Below are positions 1,303 through 12,895 of a DNA stretch of 20,000 nt, one piece after another. The translations under genes were made by a program, and so were the position numbers. Source of the DNA: Candidatus Freyarchaeum deiterrae. GTDB taxonomy: Archaea; Asgardarchaeota; Jordiarchaeia; Jordiarchaeales; Jordiarchaeaceae. Position 1 is the stretch's first letter. Every line of letters begins with the position of its first letter. The notes under the pieces were generated by a model. That model had not been told where the DNA came from. It saw nothing but the letters and a program-made list of their open reading frames with translations, and ran no database searches. The stretch spans positions 1,418,138 to 1,438,137 of the forward strand of contig CP147778.1 in NCBI GenBank assembly GCA_037305845.1. The letters are read 5' to 3'.

Positions 1303-1476
1303 TTTATTCGCCTGTTGATTTGGTAAATCCGAATTTGATTTTGATGTTGTGGAATATTGGCGGGTAATTTCTTAAATTTATTGTTTGGCGTAGGTTGATG
1401 AAAATAGAAATTTAAGAAAGAGGCGTTTAGGATTTATTAGTGTCTTGTGTAAAGCTTGTTGAGGATTTGGGTAGGA

Positions 1477-2007
1477 ATGGAAAACTTATCAGCTTTGGAG
1501 AGTGAGTGGTATATTCTTAACGAGATGCTTGGCGATCTGAAATCTAGGAAGATGCAAGTCCCTGTGAATGTCGTGGAGAATTTAAGGTATACTCGTTTCA
1601 TAATTACGCATTACACGGAGTCCACGGAGGGAGAAACACACTCACATGAGGATTATCTTATGGATTTAGAAGTAGCTCTAAATAATGTAAAGGCGGCACT
1701 GTTTGCTACAGCTCAGGAATTGGGTGAGGACTATGTTGCTCTATGGAAGAAGAAAATTGATGAGGCCCCACTGAATCCTCCGCCACAGCGTAAAAAGACT
1801 TTTGTTAAGGGAGTGCCTAGAGACAGCGGATTAGACTTTGTGCGTATTAGGTTTGATAGGGTTATACCAGAATCGGAATTGACACATGTCGCCAAAAAGT
1901 ATAAAGTCAGCATAGAGTTAGAGGAGAAAGAAAAAATGGCCGTTGTGTCGGGCGCTCGAGAGAATGTTAAGGAAGCAATTCAAGAGATAGCAAAAAAATA
2001 TTTATAG
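1477..2007 (+). CDS. Conserved archaeal hypothetical protein (resembles DUF2096 family)
   Basis: ORF 1456..2007. ATG at 1477 is a more likely start than TTG at 1456. The family name is from memory of N-terminal/C-terminal features, not a search. Confidence 0.6.
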   Translation: MENLSALESEWYILNEMLGDLKSRKMQVPVNVVENLRYTRFIITHYTESTEGETHSHEDYLMDLEVALNNVKAALFATAQELGEDYVALWKKKIDEAPLNPPPQRKKTFVKGVPRDSGLDFVRIRFDRVIPESELTHVAKKYKVSIELEEKEKMAVVSGARENVKEAIQEIAKKYL

Positions 2008-7806: not shown

Positions 7807-7942
7807 ACCAAAAACTTTTCATCAACACATTATATTCTCCACTAACAAAAAGTTATATGCTTGACTCAAGCTAAGCCGAACTAAACAAAAGAAAAGCAAA
7901 AGCCCTACTTTCACACTCAGAAGTTGAAAATTACAGAAAAAT

Positions 7943-8157
7943 GGTGGGGACGGAGAGATTTCCAAGGAGAAACAGAGTTTCCCATTTTGAACTCCCGACT
8001 AACAGGTTTCTTCAGCTCACTGCTCCAGAAGTTCATCATCTTCTGGTCAGCAAACCTGATTATTATCATTGCCTCTGGAGCCTGCCGTGCTTCTTAGCCG
8101 AGTTCAGAACAACCAAACTATTGTCCCGAACAACTCTGACTACACTACGTCCCCACC
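7943..8157 (-). ncRNA. Candidate structured RNA of about 215 nt, unassigned
   Basis: Inside AT-rich non-coding DNA, GGTGGGGACG (7943-7952) is perfectly complementary to CGTCCCCACC (8148-8157). Nested within are 8105-8094/8002-7989 (12 bp, 2-nt bulge), CAGGTTT/AAACCTG (8058-8052/8009-8003) and CCAGAAG/CTTCTGG (8046-8040/8031-8025). A T-run follows on the minus strand (about 7940-7936). Strand is preferred, not proven. Confidence 0.45.
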
Positions 8158-8380
8158 GAAATGGGTTAGGCAGCAACACACCAAACATGGTGCGTGTAAA
8201 AATGATAAGTGCAAGAATTACATAAAGTTTTTGTTTCCCTCCTCTTTTGCCTCTCAAACCCCGCACACCTAATTTCAGAACACAAAACCATTACAATAAA
8301 CCATAAAACATCAAACCAGTAAGCAATAAAAAGCCACAAAAATCAAAAAAGTCCAAAAATAAACAAACACACAAAACCGC

Positions 8381-8388
8381 AAAAAAAA
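8381..8388 (-). terminator. Oligo-T terminator for the permuted 5S transcript
   Basis: Run of eight T on the minus strand about 20 nt after the end of the BHB outer stem. Confidence 0.55.
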
Positions 8389-8407
8389 CACGAAATTAGG
8401 AATGCGG

Positions 8408-8552
8408 CGTCGCTGTTCCGTGTTCGGTAAGAGAACGGGTGATCCCCATGCACTATGACCGGCACCGAGGCGCCAGCATTCGGTTTTTCCGCTCCCTCGC
8501 GGAGAGCAGTACTCACAGAATCGTACATGAGCTTAACTTTCACGCAGCGACG
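8408..8552 (-). other. BHB (bulge-helix-bulge) processing motif enclosing the permuted 5S
   Basis: Outer helix CGUCGCUG (8552-8545) / CAGCGACG (8415-8408), 8 bp perfect. Central helix CGUG (8544-8541) / CACG (8422-8419), 4 bp. 3-nt bulges AAA (8540-8538) and GAA (8418-8416) have the correct BHB polarity (each bulge 3' of the central helix). The inner helix is weak. Confidence 0.75.
8417..8538 (-). rRNA. 5S rRNA, circularly permuted gene (predicted 122-nt circular product)
   Basis: Minus strand order is A-GUUAAGCUCAUGUACGAUUCUGUGAGUACUGCUCUCC...GGAAAAACCGAAUGCUGGCGC-CUCG-GUGCCGGUCAUAGUGCAUGGGGAUCACCCGUUCUCUUACCGAACACGGA. All five 5S helices form: I 8477-8470/8465-8458, II 8453-8445/8531-8523, III 8438-8435/8421-8418, IV 8509-8502/8496-8489, V 8521-8518/8481-8478. 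Loop A (CAUAG), loop C (CCGAAC) and loop E (GAGUAC) consensus are present. Confidence 0.87.
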
Positions 8553-8575
8553 TCTATCTCTCACATAACAAACGG

Positions 8576-8583
8576 AAATATAA
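8576..8583 (-). promoter_or_regulatory. TATA box of the permuted 5S gene
   Basis: TTTATATT on the minus strand, about 25 nt before the predicted leader (TSS about 8555-8552). Confidence 0.5.
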
Positions 8584-8819
8584 ACATTTCTAAGCAATAA
8601 CAAACAATATACACACCCTCAAACTACAGGCATAAACACAAAAACATCATCATAAAAACACGTTAAATTACAAAGAAAAAAAACAAGTATGGCCGGTTGA
8701 AAACAATAATGATATTCTTATGAAAGTAGTAGCCTTGCAGATACAAATACGACTTAATCCACACATCCTCCGCAAAAATTAACCAACTAGAGACAGCGTT
8801 CAACAAATGAACAGAAAAA

Positions 8820-8829
8820 TTTATATTTT
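8820..8829 (+). promoter_or_regulatory. TATA box of tRNA-Asp
   Basis: TTTATATTTT about 31-40 nt upstream of the tRNA 5' end. Confidence 0.5.
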
Positions 8830-8908
8830 AAAGTTAATTCTAATCAAACACACAGAATGCGCCCAAGTGGTGTAGCCCGGTCTATCATCGCGGCCTGTCA
8901 CGTCGTGG

Positions 8909-8936
8909 ACACAAAAACGATGGTTTAGTGGCGGGA
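8909..8936 (+). other. tRNA-Asp intron 1 (28 nt, variable loop about 45/46)
   Basis: Central helix 8903-8906/8931-8934 (with G-U pairs), bulges GG^A and GA^A, inner helix CAC/GTG (8910-8912/8928-8930). The outer helix is weak. Confidence 0.7.
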
Positions 8937-8943
8937 ACCCGAG

Positions 8944-8972
8944 GCCAAAAAACAAAGGTTTTATGGCGGGAA
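8944..8972 (+). other. tRNA-Asp intron 2 (29 nt, T-arm 53/54)
   Basis: Central helix CCCG/CGGG (8938-8941/8967-8970), bulges AG^G and AA^T, inner helix CCA/TGG extended by AAAAC/GTTTT. Confidence 0.85.
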
Positions 8973-9149
8973 TTCAAATCTCGGCTTGGGCGCCAACACT
9001 TCTTCTATAAAGCAGTTTCCAATTATTGAGGATTTTTTAGGTTTTCCATTTTTAGATATGAAATAGCTCTGCTGTGATTTTTAAAAAAATAATTATGTGA
9101 TCTATGAATGAGTAGAGGAGGTTAAGCTCGGAACTCAGAAAGGGAAAAA

Positions 9150-9337: not shown

Positions 9338-9553
9338 TTCAAATCCTGCACGGCCCGCCAAAACTCATTCAGATTTTCTGTATTGAAAATTGAATGTTTT
9401 AGGTTGAAAAATTTGAGAGTTGTATGATAGAATAAGAATATAAAGTGCTTTGTTTTAGTTTTTCATTGTTGTTAGTTTCTTGTAGTCGCGTGGGATGGTT
9501 TAAAACAGATTTATAGTTTGTTTGTGATTGGTTGATTCCTAGAAGTGGTTGTT

Positions 9554-12500
9554 ATGTCTAATGGTGAACAGTTGGATAATTGGCGTATTGTGGAAGCTTT
9601 CATCGAGGAAAATGGTCTGGTTCGGCAGCACCTAGATTCTTATGACGAGTTTATTAGACATGGACTGCAGCAGGTAGTAGACGAGATTGCAGCCATTGAG
9701 CCGGAAGGAGAGAATTACTACGTTAGGCTGGGTAAAATTGAGATAGGGAAGCCTACAGTGAAAGAGGCTGACGGCTCAACCATGCCGGTTTTTCCCAACG
9801 AGGCCCGCATCCGTAACCTGACATATGCCTCAAACCTTCACTTGGAGATGGCTATAGTTTATAGTGACGAACGGGGAGGAGATACTGAAGAAGCCCCAGT
9901 TGAGGTTTACATAGGCAGAATTCCAATCATGTTAAAATCCGAAAAGTGTCCCCTTTCCCAGTTGAGCAGGGAGGAACTCATAACTCTGGGAGAGGATCCC
10001 GATGACCCGGGAGGCTACTTTATTATAAATGGAAGTGAGAGGGTTCTGGTCACTCAGGAAGACCTCGCCCCTAACCGTATCCTTATTGAGGAGGCTAATA
10101 AGAGCAGTTCATCCACCCACGTTGCTAAAGTTTTTAGCACAGCTCAAGGTTTCCGAGCCCCAGTAACTATGGAGCGACGACGAGACGGCTCCCTCAGGAT
10201 TTCTTTCCCCTCGGTTCCCGGAAAGATTCCGCTAGTAGTTTTAATGCGCGCCCTCGGGCTGGAGAGTGATAAACAGATCGCCGAGGCGATTTCCGATGAG
10301 GATGAGATTGTCCGCGAATTAATTCCCTCAATTGAGGCGGCGTCTACAATTATCTCCCGTGACGAGTCACTTGACTACGTTGGCAAGCGTGTCGCCGTGG
10401 GTCAGACCAGAGACTACCGCCTGAAGAGAGCGGAACAGGTTCTGGACCGGTACCTTCTCCCACACATCGGTACTGACGCTAAGGACCGGTTAAGAAAAGC
10501 GTTCTACCTGGGCCAGATGGCTTCGCATATTATTGAGTTGGCTCTCGGCAAGAGAACCGAGGATGATAAGGACCATTACGCTAATAAGAGATTGAAGCTC
10601 GCCGGTGACCTGCTGATGAGCTTGTTCCGGGTGGCTTTCCTCAGCCTCTGCAGAGACATTAAATACCAGCTTGAGAGAAACGCCGTCAGAGGCAGACGGA
10701 GAAACATCAAGACTGCAGTTCGTGCAGACGTAATTACAGACCGCTTACATCACGCGCTCGCAACAGGAAACTGGGTAGGCGGCAAAGCCGGAGTAAGCCA
10801 GCTTCTAGACAGAACCAATTATATGTCCGCCCTCAGCCACCTCAGAAGAGTCGTTTCTCCCTTGAGCAGAAGCCAGCCTCACTTCGAAGCTCGAGACCTG
10901 CACCCCACCCACTGGGGCAAAATCTGCCCTAACGAGACACCAGAAGGACCTAACTGTGGACTAGTTAAAAACCTAGCGCTCCTAGCTTACATATCCGTAG
11001 GCGCAGACGAAAAGGAGATTGAAAGCGTCTTCGTGGATCTAGGTGTGCAACCCATAGAAGAGATAAAGAGAGAGAAGGGAGCCAAAGGCGCCCAAGTCTA
11101 CGTCAACGGTCGACTGATAGGAGTACACATGCAACCTCTAGTCCTCGTAGCGGAAGTAAAGAAGCGGAGGAGAAGCGGCCAAATAAACAATGAGGTAAAC
11201 ATCGCCTACTACTCCGACACTAACGAGATACAGACCAACTGCGACCAAGGACGAGCAAGACGCCCCCTAATAATAGTGGAAAACAAGACCACCAAATACA
11301 CCACAGAACACGCGACAAAACTCAGAAGCAAGGAATGGAAGTTCAGCGACCTAATACGCAGAGGAATAGTGGAATTCCTAGACGCAGAAGAAGAAGAAAA
11401 CACCCACATAGCAATGACCCCACCGGACATAAACGAGAAAACCACCCACATAGAAATCGCGCCCACTTCAATCCTTGGAATATCTGCATCCATAATACCC
11501 TACCCCGAACACAACCAAAGCCCAAGAAACACTTATGAAGCTGGAATGGTAAAACAAGCCCTCGGATTATTCGCAGCCAACTACCGAACAAGAGCAGACA
11601 CACGCGCCCATCTACTCCACTACCCACAAACCCCAATGGTGAACACAAAATCAACCACACCCACAGGATTCGACAAAAGACCTGCAGGACAAAACTTCAT
11701 AGTAGCAGTAATATCCTACGAAGGATACAACATAGAAGACGCCATAATAATAAACCAAGCCTCCATACAACGCGGACTAGGAAGATCAACCTTCTTCAGA
11801 AGCTACGAAGCTGAAGAAAGGAAATACCCCGGAGGACAAGAAGATAAATTCGAAATACCCGACCGCAGCGTCAGAGGATACCGCGCCGCAGAAGCCTACC
11901 GCCACCTATCCGACGACGGAATAATCGAACCCGAAGTCGAAGTCCTAGGCGGAGAAATAATAATAGGAAGAACAAGCCCCCCAAGATTCCTAGAAGAAAA
12001 CGCAGGCTTCGAACTACCCACCCAAACCCGAAGAGAAACCTCAACCAGCATGCGACACGGAGAACTAGGAACCGTAGACACAGTAAGCGTAACCGAAACC
12101 ATAGACGGAAACAGACTAGTCAAAGTCAAAATCAGAGACCTAAGAATACCCGAACTAGGCGATAAATTCGCAACACGCCACGGACAAAAAGGAATAATCG
12201 GACTAATAGTACCCCAAGAAGACCTACCCTTCACAGAAGACGGCGTAGTCCCAGACCTCATAGTCAACCCACATGCAGTACCATCACGAATGACCATAGG
12301 ACAAATAATAGAATCCATAGCCGGAAAAGTAGGCGCACTCAGCGGAAGAAGAATAGACGGCACAGCGTTCAGCGGCGAACCACTAAAAGACCTATACAAA
12401 GAACTGACCAGCAGAGGCTTCAAACACAACGGTAGAGAAGTAATGTACAACGGAATAACCGGAAGAAAATACGAAGCAGACATATTCATAGGAGTCGTAT

Positions 12501-12895
12501 ACTACCAAAAACTACACCACATGGTATCAGACAAAATCCACGCCAGAGCCAGAGGACCAGTACAAATACTAACAAGACAACCGACAGAAGGACGAGCCAG
12601 AGAAGGCGGACTCAGATTCGGAGAAATGGAAAGAGACTGCCTCATAGGCCACGGAAGTGCGCTAATTTTGAAGGAGAAGCTTGTCGATGAGAGTGATAAG
12701 ACTACTTCTCTTGTTTGTGAGGATTGTGGTATGCTCGCCGTGTACGATAAGAATAAGGGTCGTTACTATTGTCCGCTTTGTGGTGAGGATATTCGGGTTT
12801 CCAAGGTTAACATGAGCTACGCCTTCAAACTGTTGTTGCAGGAGCTTATGGCTTTGGGTATTGCTCCGCGTCTTAAGCTTGCGGAGAAAACTTGA
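9554..12895 (+). CDS. rpoB: DNA-directed RNA polymerase subunit B (undivided RpoB)
   Basis: ORF 9545..12895; ATG at 9554 is an alternative start to GTG at 9545. LHPTHWGKICPNETPEGPNCGL, GYNIEDAIIIN, KFATRHGQKG and the C-terminal zinc ribbon CEDCGMLAVYDKNKGRYYCPLCG are present. Confidence 0.97.
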   Translation: MSNGEQLDNWRIVEAFIEENGLVRQHLDSYDEFIRHGLQQVVDEIAAIEPEGENYYVRLGKIEIGKPTVKEADGSTMPVFPNEARIRNLTYASNLHLEMAIVYSDERGGDTEEAPVEVYIGRIPIMLKSEKCPLSQLSREELITLGEDPDDPGGYFIINGSERVLVTQEDLAPNRILIEEANKSSSSTHVAKVFSTAQGFRAPVTMERRRDGSLRISFPSVPGKIPLVVLMRALGLESDKQIAEAISDEDEIVRELIPSIEAASTIISRDESLDYVGKRVAVGQTRDYRLKRAEQVLDRYLLPHIGTDAKDRLRKAFYLGQMASHIIELALGKRTEDDKDHYANKRLKLAGDLLMSLFRVAFLSLCRDIKYQLERNAVRGRRRNIKTAVRADVITDRLHHALATGNWVGGKAGVSQLLDRTNYMSALSHLRRVVSPLSRSQPHFEARDLHPTHWGKICPNETPEGPNCGLVKNLALLAYISVGADEKEIESVFVDLGVQPIEEIKREKGAKGAQVYVNGRLIGVHMQPLVLVAEVKKRRRSGQINNEVNIAYYSDTNEIQTNCDQGRARRPLIIVENKTTKYTTEHATKLRSKEWKFSDLIRRGIVEFLDAEEEENTHIAMTPPDINEKTTHIEIAPTSILGISASIIPYPEHNQSPRNTYEAGMVKQALGLFAANYRTRADTRAHLLHYPQTPMVNTKSTTPTGFDKRPAGQNFIVAVISYEGYNIEDAIIINQASIQRGLGRSTFFRSYEAEERKYPGGQEDKFEIPDRSVRGYRAAEAYRHLSDDGIIEPEVEVLGGEIIIGRTSPPRFLEENAGFELPTQTRRETSTSMRHGELGTVDTVSVTETIDGNRLVKVKIRDLRIPELGDKFATRHGQKGIIGLIVPQEDLPFTEDGVVPDLIVNPHAVPSRMTIGQIIESIAGKVGALSGRRIDGTAFSGEPLKDLYKELTSRGFKHNGREVMYNGITGRKYEADIFIGVVYYQKLHHMVSDKIHARARGPVQILTRQPTEGRAREGGLRFGEMERDCLIGHGSALILKEKLVDESDKTTSLVCEDCGMLAVYDKNKGRYYCPLCGEDIRVSKVNMSYAFKLLLQELMALGIAPRLKLAEKT

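Follow-up and report, generated by a model that had tools for sequence, protein, structure and literature searches.

A circularly permuted 5S ribosomal RNA gene in Asgard archaea whose termini carry a bulge-helix-bulge-type motif and are predicted to be joined into a circle

Layout of the 5S rRNA locus

In a 20,000-nt stretch of the genome of Candidatus Freyarchaeum deiterrae (contig CP147778.1; hereafter the window), the minus strand carries a gene for 5S ribosomal RNA (rRNA) in circularly permuted order. The 3' part of the RNA is encoded upstream of the 5' part, and the native ends are linked by CUCG. The 122-nt core (8538..8417) gives a colinear 5S sequence after rotation, and the strands at its two ends pair with each other in a motif of the bulge-helix-bulge (BHB) type, as it is known from transfer RNA (tRNA) splicing. 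The following features were assigned, in the order of transcription:

8576..8593, minus strand: putative archaeal promoter, TTAGAAAUG plus TATA-like TTTATATT (8584-8577), about 24 nt upstream of the outer helix
8545..8552, minus strand: outer processing helix, 5' strand CGUCGCUG, with 8 perfect Watson-Crick pairs to 8415-8408; present in the minimum free energy (MFE) and centroid folds of the precursor, covaries across lineages
8541..8544, minus strand: central 4-bp helix of the BHB, 5' strand CGUG, pairs with CACG at 8422-8419
8538..8540, minus strand: 5' bulge or loop AAA, predicted cut 8539|8538
8417..8538, minus strand: permuted 5S body of 122 nt, consisting of the 3' part (AGUUAAGC to the helix I 3' strand), the CUCG loop and the 5' part (helix I 5' strand to CCGAACACGGA)
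8458..8477, minus strand: helix I as a hairpin, GCUGGCGC-CUCG-GUGCCGGU, whose tetraloop (8469-8466) bridges the native 3' and 5' ends
8419..8422, minus strand: central helix of the BHB, 3' strand CACG, overlaps the 3' strand of 5S helix III
8416..8418, minus strand: 3' bulge GAA, predicted cut 8417|8416
8408..8415, minus strand: outer processing helix, 3' strand CAGCGACG, complements CGUCGCUG and covaries
8381..8388, minus strand: oligo-T tract (T8), likely archaeal terminator

The outer helix is preceded by GA (GA-CGUCGCUG). After the AAA triplet the strand reads GUUAAGC...GCUGGCGC-CUCG-GUGCCGGUCAUAG...CCGAA and then CACG, and a gap of 19 nt separates CAGCGACG from the T8 tract. A sequence-only reading of this DNA had described TATA and oligo-T signals framing a small transcript, and both elements flank the unit. 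Promoter and terminator were called by eye and by conservation. A scan of the window for sigma-70 promoters and intrinsic terminators gave no match, the scanner being of the bacterial type and not applicable to archaea. ARAGORN predicted no tRNA in the window or beside the orthologous 5S gene of Ca. F. guaymaensis.

The locus encodes a 5S rRNA in permuted order

The linear 5S model of Rfam gave no match at the gathering level (38 bits) anywhere in the window. With permissive settings two halves were detected, one at 8466-8385 with 17.3 bits and a good alignment to model positions 1-50, the other at 8576-8468 with 12.6 bits and covering roughly model positions 47-120. Two halves below the threshold are the split signature expected of a permuted gene, as the sequence-only reading had foreseen for this search. 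The gathering score was reached in none of the eight related permuted loci tested, compared to 54-97 bits for conventional controls. The locus is a 5S homologue and not a colinear member of the family (RF00001).

For a search in permuted order, a covariance model (R1) was built from seven conventional 5S rRNAs located with Rfam, five of them archaeal or likely archaeal and two bacterial, with no Asgard sequence included. The inputs were trimmed to helix I, cut in silico after CGG-N of CGAACNCGGN (GGA|AG) and closed at helix I with GAAA (alignment A3). R1 matched window positions 8417-8538 on the minus strand over its full length (model positions 1-121) with 76.0 bits (E about 8e-17), and the related loci scored 53.5-93.4 bits. 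Around its own conventional source genes the model reached 37-47 bits, or 56-66 bits where two copies stand in tandem. In shuffles of the window, 0.00 chance occurrences of the permuted motif order were expected. The permuted domain order claimed earlier for the minus strand is borne out by the two Rfam halves together with the R1 match.

For the rotated window RNA, the MFE structure (z -2.6) is the three-way junction of 5S with helices I-V, a fold that becomes complete only when the new termini are joined. It satisfies 29 of 34 consensus pairs, within the range of the rotated Asgard RNAs (29-34) and of seven bona fide controls (21-32). These counts were taken from alignment A1, in which conventional 5S rRNAs and the rotated sequences match over their whole length; a permuted-only alignment (A2, MAFFT) misplaced the 3' strands of helix I. 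Over the 11 rotated and 7 conventional sequences of A1, 26 columns are invariant, including ACCCG, CGAAC and CGG, and RNAalifold recovered the canonical helices I-V with compensatory changes at 26 of the 34 pairs. All conserved loops are present in the window, namely loop A (CAUAG), loop C (CCGAAC), GGAAGUUAAGC and loop E (GUACUG). Five intact helices, intact conserved loops and native ends fused by a CUCG tetraloop closing helix I had all been read from the sequence before, and this description stands. The break itself had been placed inside internal loop B; it is better placed at the AA of GGAAGU, on the 3' side of helix III/loop B.

An assembly rearrangement had been named among the findings that would overturn this description. 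The 136-nt locus is identical on two independently assembled Logan contigs (SRR29366194 and SRR29366192), which were found via a neighbouring protein, and the locus is not an assembly artefact.

Permuted 5S genes in other Asgard archaea

By pattern scans and by walking along synteny, 12 distinct loci with a permuted 5S were collected, which fall into at least three Asgard lineages and one outlier:

Jordarchaeia: the window; L028; L092 (Ca. Freyrarchaeum guaymaensis, GCA_030587405.2), with the same gene in L091 and L093
Heimdallarchaeia/Hodarchaeales: L006; L101-L103, which are the chromosome-scale records CP070665, CP070695 and CP070760; L107
Third lineage (L003 group): L003, L104, L106
Outlier: L066 (Ga0326728_10000123), 1476-1596, minus strand, R1 score 61 bits, UUCG-capped helix I

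In the Heimdallarchaeia/Hodarchaeales group the 5S gene always lies between DRMBL and MptE-like genes, and the product of a gene next to L107 is labelled Hodarchaeales. The L003 group has a GC-rich 5S and, like the Heimdall loci, MutS-DRMBL synteny; among named homologues of its DRMBL neighbour, those from Hodarchaeales are nearest, with only 37-38% identity. The first genome-wide pattern required GTTAAGC and GTACTG and missed variants such as GTCAAGT and GTTAAGT. Most pattern matches in metagenomes were ordinary 5S genes that follow 23S or form tandems.

The linker between the native ends differs among the loci. It is CUCG in the window, L092 and the L003 group, UUCG in L028 and L066, AAUUA in L006 and UAUUG in L101-L103 and L107. 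Between the window and L028, 5 of the 122 core positions differ, while the surrounding 150 nt are about 79% identical. Two of the changes lie in helix II (G-C to G.U or the reverse), one turns a G.U pair of helix I into A-U, one falls on a pre-existing mismatch and one changes the loop from CUCG to UUCG, so that pairing is kept or improved in four cases and the fifth change affects the tetraloop. From this comparison the permuted core appears to be under purifying selection. Upstream, a TTAGAAA(Y)(R)TTTATATTT element occurs at equal distance in L028 and L092, and the promoter-like TTAGAAAYRTTTATATTT is kept in all three Jordarchaeial loci; the Heimdall loci share another TATA-like element, ATATTTAAAGRCTCTTGAA. 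T-rich tracts downstream of the gene were also seen in L028, L006, L101-L103 and L107.

The fused RpoB encoded next to the window 5S (9545-12895) shows 91% identity to that of Ca. Freyrarchaeum guaymaensis and 90% to that of a Ca. Jordarchaeum sp., and more distant matches come from Helarchaeota, Njordarchaeota, Atabeyarchaeum, Lokiarchaeota and Thorarchaeota, which places the window in the Jordarchaeia/Freyrarchaeia group of Asgard archaea. Synteny with rpoB yielded 5S orthologues only in the closest genus (L091-L093), and in Jordarchaeales with 74% RpoB identity no 5S was found near rpoB. Three independent contigs of Ca. Jordarchaeum sp. and relatives (L098-L100) end 135-535 nt upstream of rpoB, short of the 5S position; a repeat or a break in coverage around the 5S might be the cause.

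The distribution bears on a gap in published annotations. In circularized Heimdallarchaeum genomes no 5S gene was predictable (Wu et al., 2022; PMC8813620), and related permuted genes are probably the explanation. The three chromosome-scale Heimdallarchaeota records CP070665, CP070695 and CP070760 have no established link to those genomes. For Promethearchaeum syntrophicum MK-D1 (Lokiarchaeia) one annotated 5S gene was reported (PMC11316595), and the permutation is therefore not pan-Asgard.

Processing motif at the new termini

The motif of the window consists of the 8-bp outer helix, the 4-bp central helix CGUG/CACG and the 3-nt bulges AAA and GAA. In the standard BHB polarity, that of the tRNA 37/38 geometry, each bulge lies 3' of a central-helix strand, and the bulges at 8540-8538 and 8418-8416 agree with it. 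A cut after the second base of each bulge restores CCGAACACGGA|AGUUAAGC, the canonical 5S sequence. The cut sites given by the sequence-only reading (AA^A at 8539/8538 and GA^A at 8417/8416) are the same, and the reading as a whole is strengthened by the 12 loci with their covarying helices, by the intron of L092 and by the published failure to predict 5S genes in circular Heimdallarchaeum genomes. In the A-rich triplets of the window the position of the cut within the triplet is not distinguishable; in the L003 group (AGG/AAA), in L104 (AGG/AAU) and in the intron of L092 described below, the invariant sequence is recovered only if the cut follows the second base. The base left over in the 3' bulge, its third, which would be discarded, varies (GAU in L028, AAU in L104), as expected if it is removed.

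Ten of the 11 tabulated loci show a 4-bp central helix with a 3-nt triplet 3' of each central strand and an abutting outer helix of 4-11 bp, and L107, which is outside this table, has the same pattern. The outer-helix sequences are unrelated between groups (CGUCGCUG, GAUCCUG, GAGACUCUG, GGGUG, GGCG). The central helix is 95.5% paired over the 11 loci, with GC/UA and CG/GC exchanges. In a register-anchored mini-alignment (A4), whose two registers were assigned by hand, a choice that favours structure in this test, 90.1% of the cells are paired compared to 64.8% in shuffles, and the covariation score is 0.613 compared to 0.168; none of 500 shuffles was as high in either measure. With slid partners as a control, 30-40% were paired. 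Several loci have an additional distal stem between leader and trailer, e.g., GAGACGCGUG/CACGCGUCUC in L003.

The two registers differ by a shift of 1 nt. In the Jordarchaeia the 3' strand of the central helix is CACG and the junction GGA|AGUU, elsewhere the strand is CCGG and the junction GGAA|GUU; CNCGGAAGUUAAG results from either. Since the 3' strand of helix III also serves the central helix, the BHB conformer and the mature helix III are mutually exclusive. Two other pairings were considered and rejected, as they are not conserved or do not yield a 5S: a GUGA/UCAC pairing in the window, which is 0.9 kcal/mol better than the BHB, and pairing of the leader to the other CCGG of helix III in the loci of the CCGG register.

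Loci L006, L101-L103, L003, L104 and L106 carry the self-complementary CCGG on both strands of helix III, and the CCGG of the leader fits either of them. In these precursors the MFE favours the non-productive copy by 0.6-3.8 kcal/mol. This ambiguity may represent a folding switch or a need for protein-assisted folding.

An intron in the 5S gene of Ca. F. guaymaensis

The L092 gene has the same termini as the window gene (GGCGUCGCUG-CGUG-AAA ... CACG-GAA-CAGCGGCGCC). In addition, this gene contains a 32-nt insertion, AUAGUGCUGGAUGCCGCCCAGCAAUAGUAGAA, in the region of loop C (10053-10084), which also occurs in L091 and L093 and is absent from the window and from L028. The insertion is framed by a perfect hBHBh' motif, i.e., a BHB enclosed by helices on both sides, with H1 GGGAA/UUCUC, a central helix CUAC/GUAG, the bulges CCA and AAG, and H2 UAGUGCUGG/CCAGCAAUA. 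Cutting after the second base of each bulge gives ...CUACCC|GUUCUCAUUCCGAAC and restores the invariant ACCCG|UUCUC. In the alignment, the spliced sequence fits the window and the ACCCG shared by all 18 sequences without a gap.

With an hBHBh' intron in its 5S, the maturation of 5S precursors in this lineage would already depend on the splicing endonuclease EndA. Judged from the motif, the intron thus appears to tie 5S maturation to this enzyme independently of the permuted termini. No description of introns in 5S rRNA was found in a full-text search of open-access papers and preprints.

Proposed maturation and alternative explanations

The minus strand from 8593 to 8381 is probably an independent unit that encodes the 5S rRNA of the cell in permuted order, with a transcript that is cut by EndA, closed by RtcB to a circle of 122 nt and likely used in the 50S subunit. 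The primary transcript would be about 170 nt long. Its leader and trailer would form the 8-bp helix, followed by the 4-bp helix with the unpaired 3-nt triplets. The EndA of Asgard archaea, an (alpha-beta)2 enzyme with L1 loop and broad specificity, would cleave each triplet behind its second base (8539|8538 and 8417|8416). The resulting 2',3'-cyclic phosphate and 5'-OH would be joined by RtcB. Ligation would rebuild the universally conserved CCGAACACGGA-AGUUAAGC, and helix III would then replace the BHB helix. The predicted junction of the circle joins ...CUCUUACCGAACACGGA to AGUUAAGCUCAUGUACG..., which are 122 nt apart and reversed in the genome. The product would be a covalently closed 5S rRNA of 122 nt with the native ends bridged by CUCG, which most likely enters the 50S subunit unchanged. 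As the linkers are hairpin loops of 3-5 nt without a second processing signal, the circle is taken as the mature form. We see an even chance that the mature ribosomal 5S is indeed a closed circle made by the tRNA-splicing machinery, which would be the first cellular (non-organellar) rRNA with a gene order repaired by ligation.

Several observations weigh against this proposal. We infer cleavage by EndA, ligation and persistence of the circle from the genes and from established archaeal RNA processing, and the hand-assigned registers of A4 favour pairing of the motif. Forcing the BHB fold yields a structure 0.2-3.8 kcal/mol above the MFE (0.9 kcal/mol in the window), and the MFE conformer is thus a different one. 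While the 3' bulge is a bulge in the full sense, no conserved inner helix closes the 5' triplet, the one of the window (UAAG/CUUA) being weak. The BHB described earlier therefore stands in its 8-bp stem, 4-bp helix, 3-nt bulges and polarity, and falls short at the 5' bulge; the motif is a relaxed hBH or bulge-helix-loop (BHL) rather than a strict hBHBh'. Relaxed motifs are cut only by EndAs of the (alpha-beta)2 and epsilon2 types, and Asgard EndA belongs to the (alpha-beta)2 form with the L1 specificity loop (PMC5829648). In L102 (CP070695, approximately 3870-3720, minus strand) the central helix CCGA/CCGG has an A.C mismatch next to the 5' triplet. The outer helix of this locus is with 9 bp the longest of its group, and the mismatch suggests that a central helix of 3 bp may be tolerated. 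The motif of L066 is degenerate, with a C.C mismatch in the central helix CCUG/CACG and no contiguous outer helix. No convincing BHB was found there in any register, leader and trailer pairing only distally (GGAAAA/UUUUCC), and this locus may be processed differently or be decaying. Finally, "a 5S rRNA gene" is listed together with only 6 tRNAs for the metagenome-assembled genome (MAG) of Ca. Jordarchaeum madagascariense (PMC9723677). It could be a partial match to the permuted gene or a true linear copy.

This last entry also touches the question of whether the permuted locus is a rearranged pseudogene or a misassembly while the actual 5S lies at another place in the genome. Of the present genome, the 20-kb window was covered. 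A conventional 5S, which the sequence-only reading had asked to be sought, was found neither there nor in the fetched flanks, and no linear 5S is detectable in the circular Heimdallarchaeum genomes (PMC8813620). A relic would hardly recur at 12 loci of three or more lineages and show compensatory changes in the 5S helices as well as in the processing helices, with conserved promoter- and terminator-like signals and with a core more conserved than its flanks. Together with the identity of the locus in two independent assemblies, this makes such an origin very improbable, and readings as a pseudogene, an artefact or a split gene were rejected on the conservation across loci and the two assemblies.

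The remaining alternatives accept the gene and concern the fate of its transcript. It is unlikely, though conceivable, that the circle is an intermediate only, opened at the linker by a nuclease after the action of EndA and RtcB to give an ordinary linear 5S. Re-opened circular precursors are the textbook pathway of archaeal 16S and 23S rRNAs (PMC12918454), and in Cyanidioschyzon merolae RNase P and tRNase Z open the precursors of permuted tRNAs again, as cited in PMC4267664. The linker of the permuted 5S, however, is a loop of only 3-5 nt that directly caps helix I, with no second BHB and no recognizable processing signal, and the UUCG and CUCG loops look selected for stability. Moreover, the signal recognition particle (SRP) RNA of Thermoproteus remains circular (PMC4731332), and circular 23S rRNA was reported within ribosomes (PMC12918454). 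Quite improbable is a mature 5S that stays linear and permuted, trimmed by EndA or other nucleases and left unligated, so that its chain is nicked at GGA/AG and its helix I capped. A linear permuted 5S is known from brown-algal mitochondria (PMC4267664), and helices II and III could hold a nicked molecule together. The break would, however, lie inside helix III next to a conserved loop, and the cut sites restore the invariant sequence exactly in two registers, a precision that matters only if the ends are joined. In addition, the products of EndA are natural substrates of RtcB, and it is established that excised archaeal BHB RNAs are generally circularized (PMC4731332).

For the permuted gene cut by EndA and closed by RtcB, an origin as proposed for permuted tRNAs is plausible. 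An intron-containing 5S gene would have been duplicated in tandem, the outer halves would have been lost, and the two halves of the intron would survive as leader and trailer. Both ingredients of this scenario were seen, tandem 5S genes with 13-nt spacers in L004 and a 5S intron in L092.

Comparison with known permuted and circular RNAs

Circularly permuted tRNA genes were reportedly described in Cyanidioschyzon merolae by Soma et al. in 2007, and such genes were also reported from Thermofilum pendens. In these tRNA genes, as in the 5S genes described here, the 3' half lies upstream, a short linker separates the native ends, leader and trailer form a BHB or BHL at a position matching intron sites, and there is a circular intermediate, which for the 5S is predicted. 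RNase P and tRNase Z open the tRNA circles again at their linker, which gives a linear tRNA; in contrast, the linker of the 5S consists of a hairpin loop of 3-5 nt and shows no evident processing signal.

The SRP RNA of Thermoproteus tenax is likewise a universal structured non-coding RNA with a permuted gene, whose termini are cut by the tRNA-splicing endonuclease and ligated to a functional circular RNA, and its gene was missed by standard covariance models (Plagens et al., 2015; PMC4731332). It differs in not being an rRNA and in being restricted to one genus of the Thermoproteales, compared to several class-level Asgard lineages. Its circle was shown by RNA sequencing and EndA assays, whereas the Asgard 5S circle is deduced from the genes.

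Among rRNAs, circular pre-16S and pre-23S, the permuted 23S of Pyrococcus and Thermococcus and the ribosomal circular 23S share with the scheme proposed for the 5S the EndA-cut BHB in a leader-trailer helix and the closure by RtcB, and they indicate that a circular or permuted rRNA can be the mature form (PMC7758197; bioRxiv 10.64898/2026.03.23.713588; PMC12918454). Their genes are colinear and the permutation exists at the RNA level only, while the 5S gene is itself permuted and would need circularization for its continuity. In the mitochondrial 5S of brown algae, helix I is also a closed hairpin and the termini are relocated; this RNA is organellar, has its termini at the junction of the alpha and gamma domains and is a linear permuted product without BHB or ligation (Valach et al., 2014; PMC4267664).

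A 5S rRNA that is permuted, circularized through a BHB or interrupted by an intron was not found described for archaea in the full-text search; precedents in subscription journals are possible. The sequence-only reading knew of no archaeal permuted 5S circularized in this way either. According to a Genome Biology paper of 2026, circularization concerns 16S and 23S "but not 5S rRNAs" (PMC12918454), a current statement which the proposed circle would contradict. Low-level 5S circles that lack BHB motifs were noted for Sulfolobus and Pyrococcus in a preprint of the same year. Introns occur in 92-95% of the tRNA genes of Freyarchaeia and Atabeyarchaeia, often at non-canonical positions (PMC11291895), which fits a heavy reliance on an EndA of broad specificity.

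Judged from the sequences, the Asgard 5S appears to extend the EndA-dependent permuted genes known for tRNA and SRP RNA to a first rRNA and to several Asgard lineages, and with it the "moonlighting" of EndA and RtcB would extend to rRNA. If this is true, ribosome biogenesis in these lineages depends on both enzymes, and a circular RNA is predicted as a stoichiometric component of the ribosome in lineages which are central to the debate on eukaryogenesis. 5S rRNA is universal and normally trivial to annotate; a permuted gene with BHB termini would account for the annotation gap in Heimdallarchaeum, and the permuted covariance model is an immediate route to 5S annotation in Asgard MAGs. The presence of the permutation, the two BHB registers and the intron form a rare genomic character that can be mapped onto the contested Asgard phylogeny.

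Other features of the neighbourhood

The intergenic DNA on both sides of the unit (8230-8400 and 8600-8750, minus strand) is strongly enriched in T and G on the transcribed strand, where stretches like TTTTTGG and GTTTTG occur, and the plus strand shows an AT skew of +0.25 at 8001-9000. The interval of about 900 nt between 5S and rpoB contains no open reading frame (ORF) of at least 80 aa.

A likely C/D box small RNA is located at 8015-8073 on the minus strand, between the 5S and RNA methyltransferase genes. It scored 37.4 bits with the Rfam model sR3 (gathering threshold 41, E 2e-7) and has the boxes C (AUGAUAA), D' (CUGA), C' (UGAUGA) and D (CUGA). The candidate is antisense to a 94-aa ORF (7941-8225), which has no Pfam match and is probably no gene. 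A lone gene for ribosomal protein L23 (6445-6711, minus strand) lies between the genes of an Ogg-type glycosylase and a PF02598 RNA methyltransferase, apart from the L3-L4-L23-L2 cluster to which it usually belongs. Ca. F. guaymaensis shows this arrangement as well.

In the window organism and in Ca. F. guaymaensis, the rpoB gene (9545-12895 in the window, 6001-9348 in L091-L093) has opposite orientations with respect to its conserved neighbours. These neighbours are an AsnC-type regulator on one side and 5S, methyltransferase, L23 and Ogg on the other, and L001 confirms the order of the window. The rpoB gene of both organisms stands apart from rpoA'/A'', whereas L097 keeps the operon rpoB-rpoA'-rpoA''-L30e-NusA-S12.

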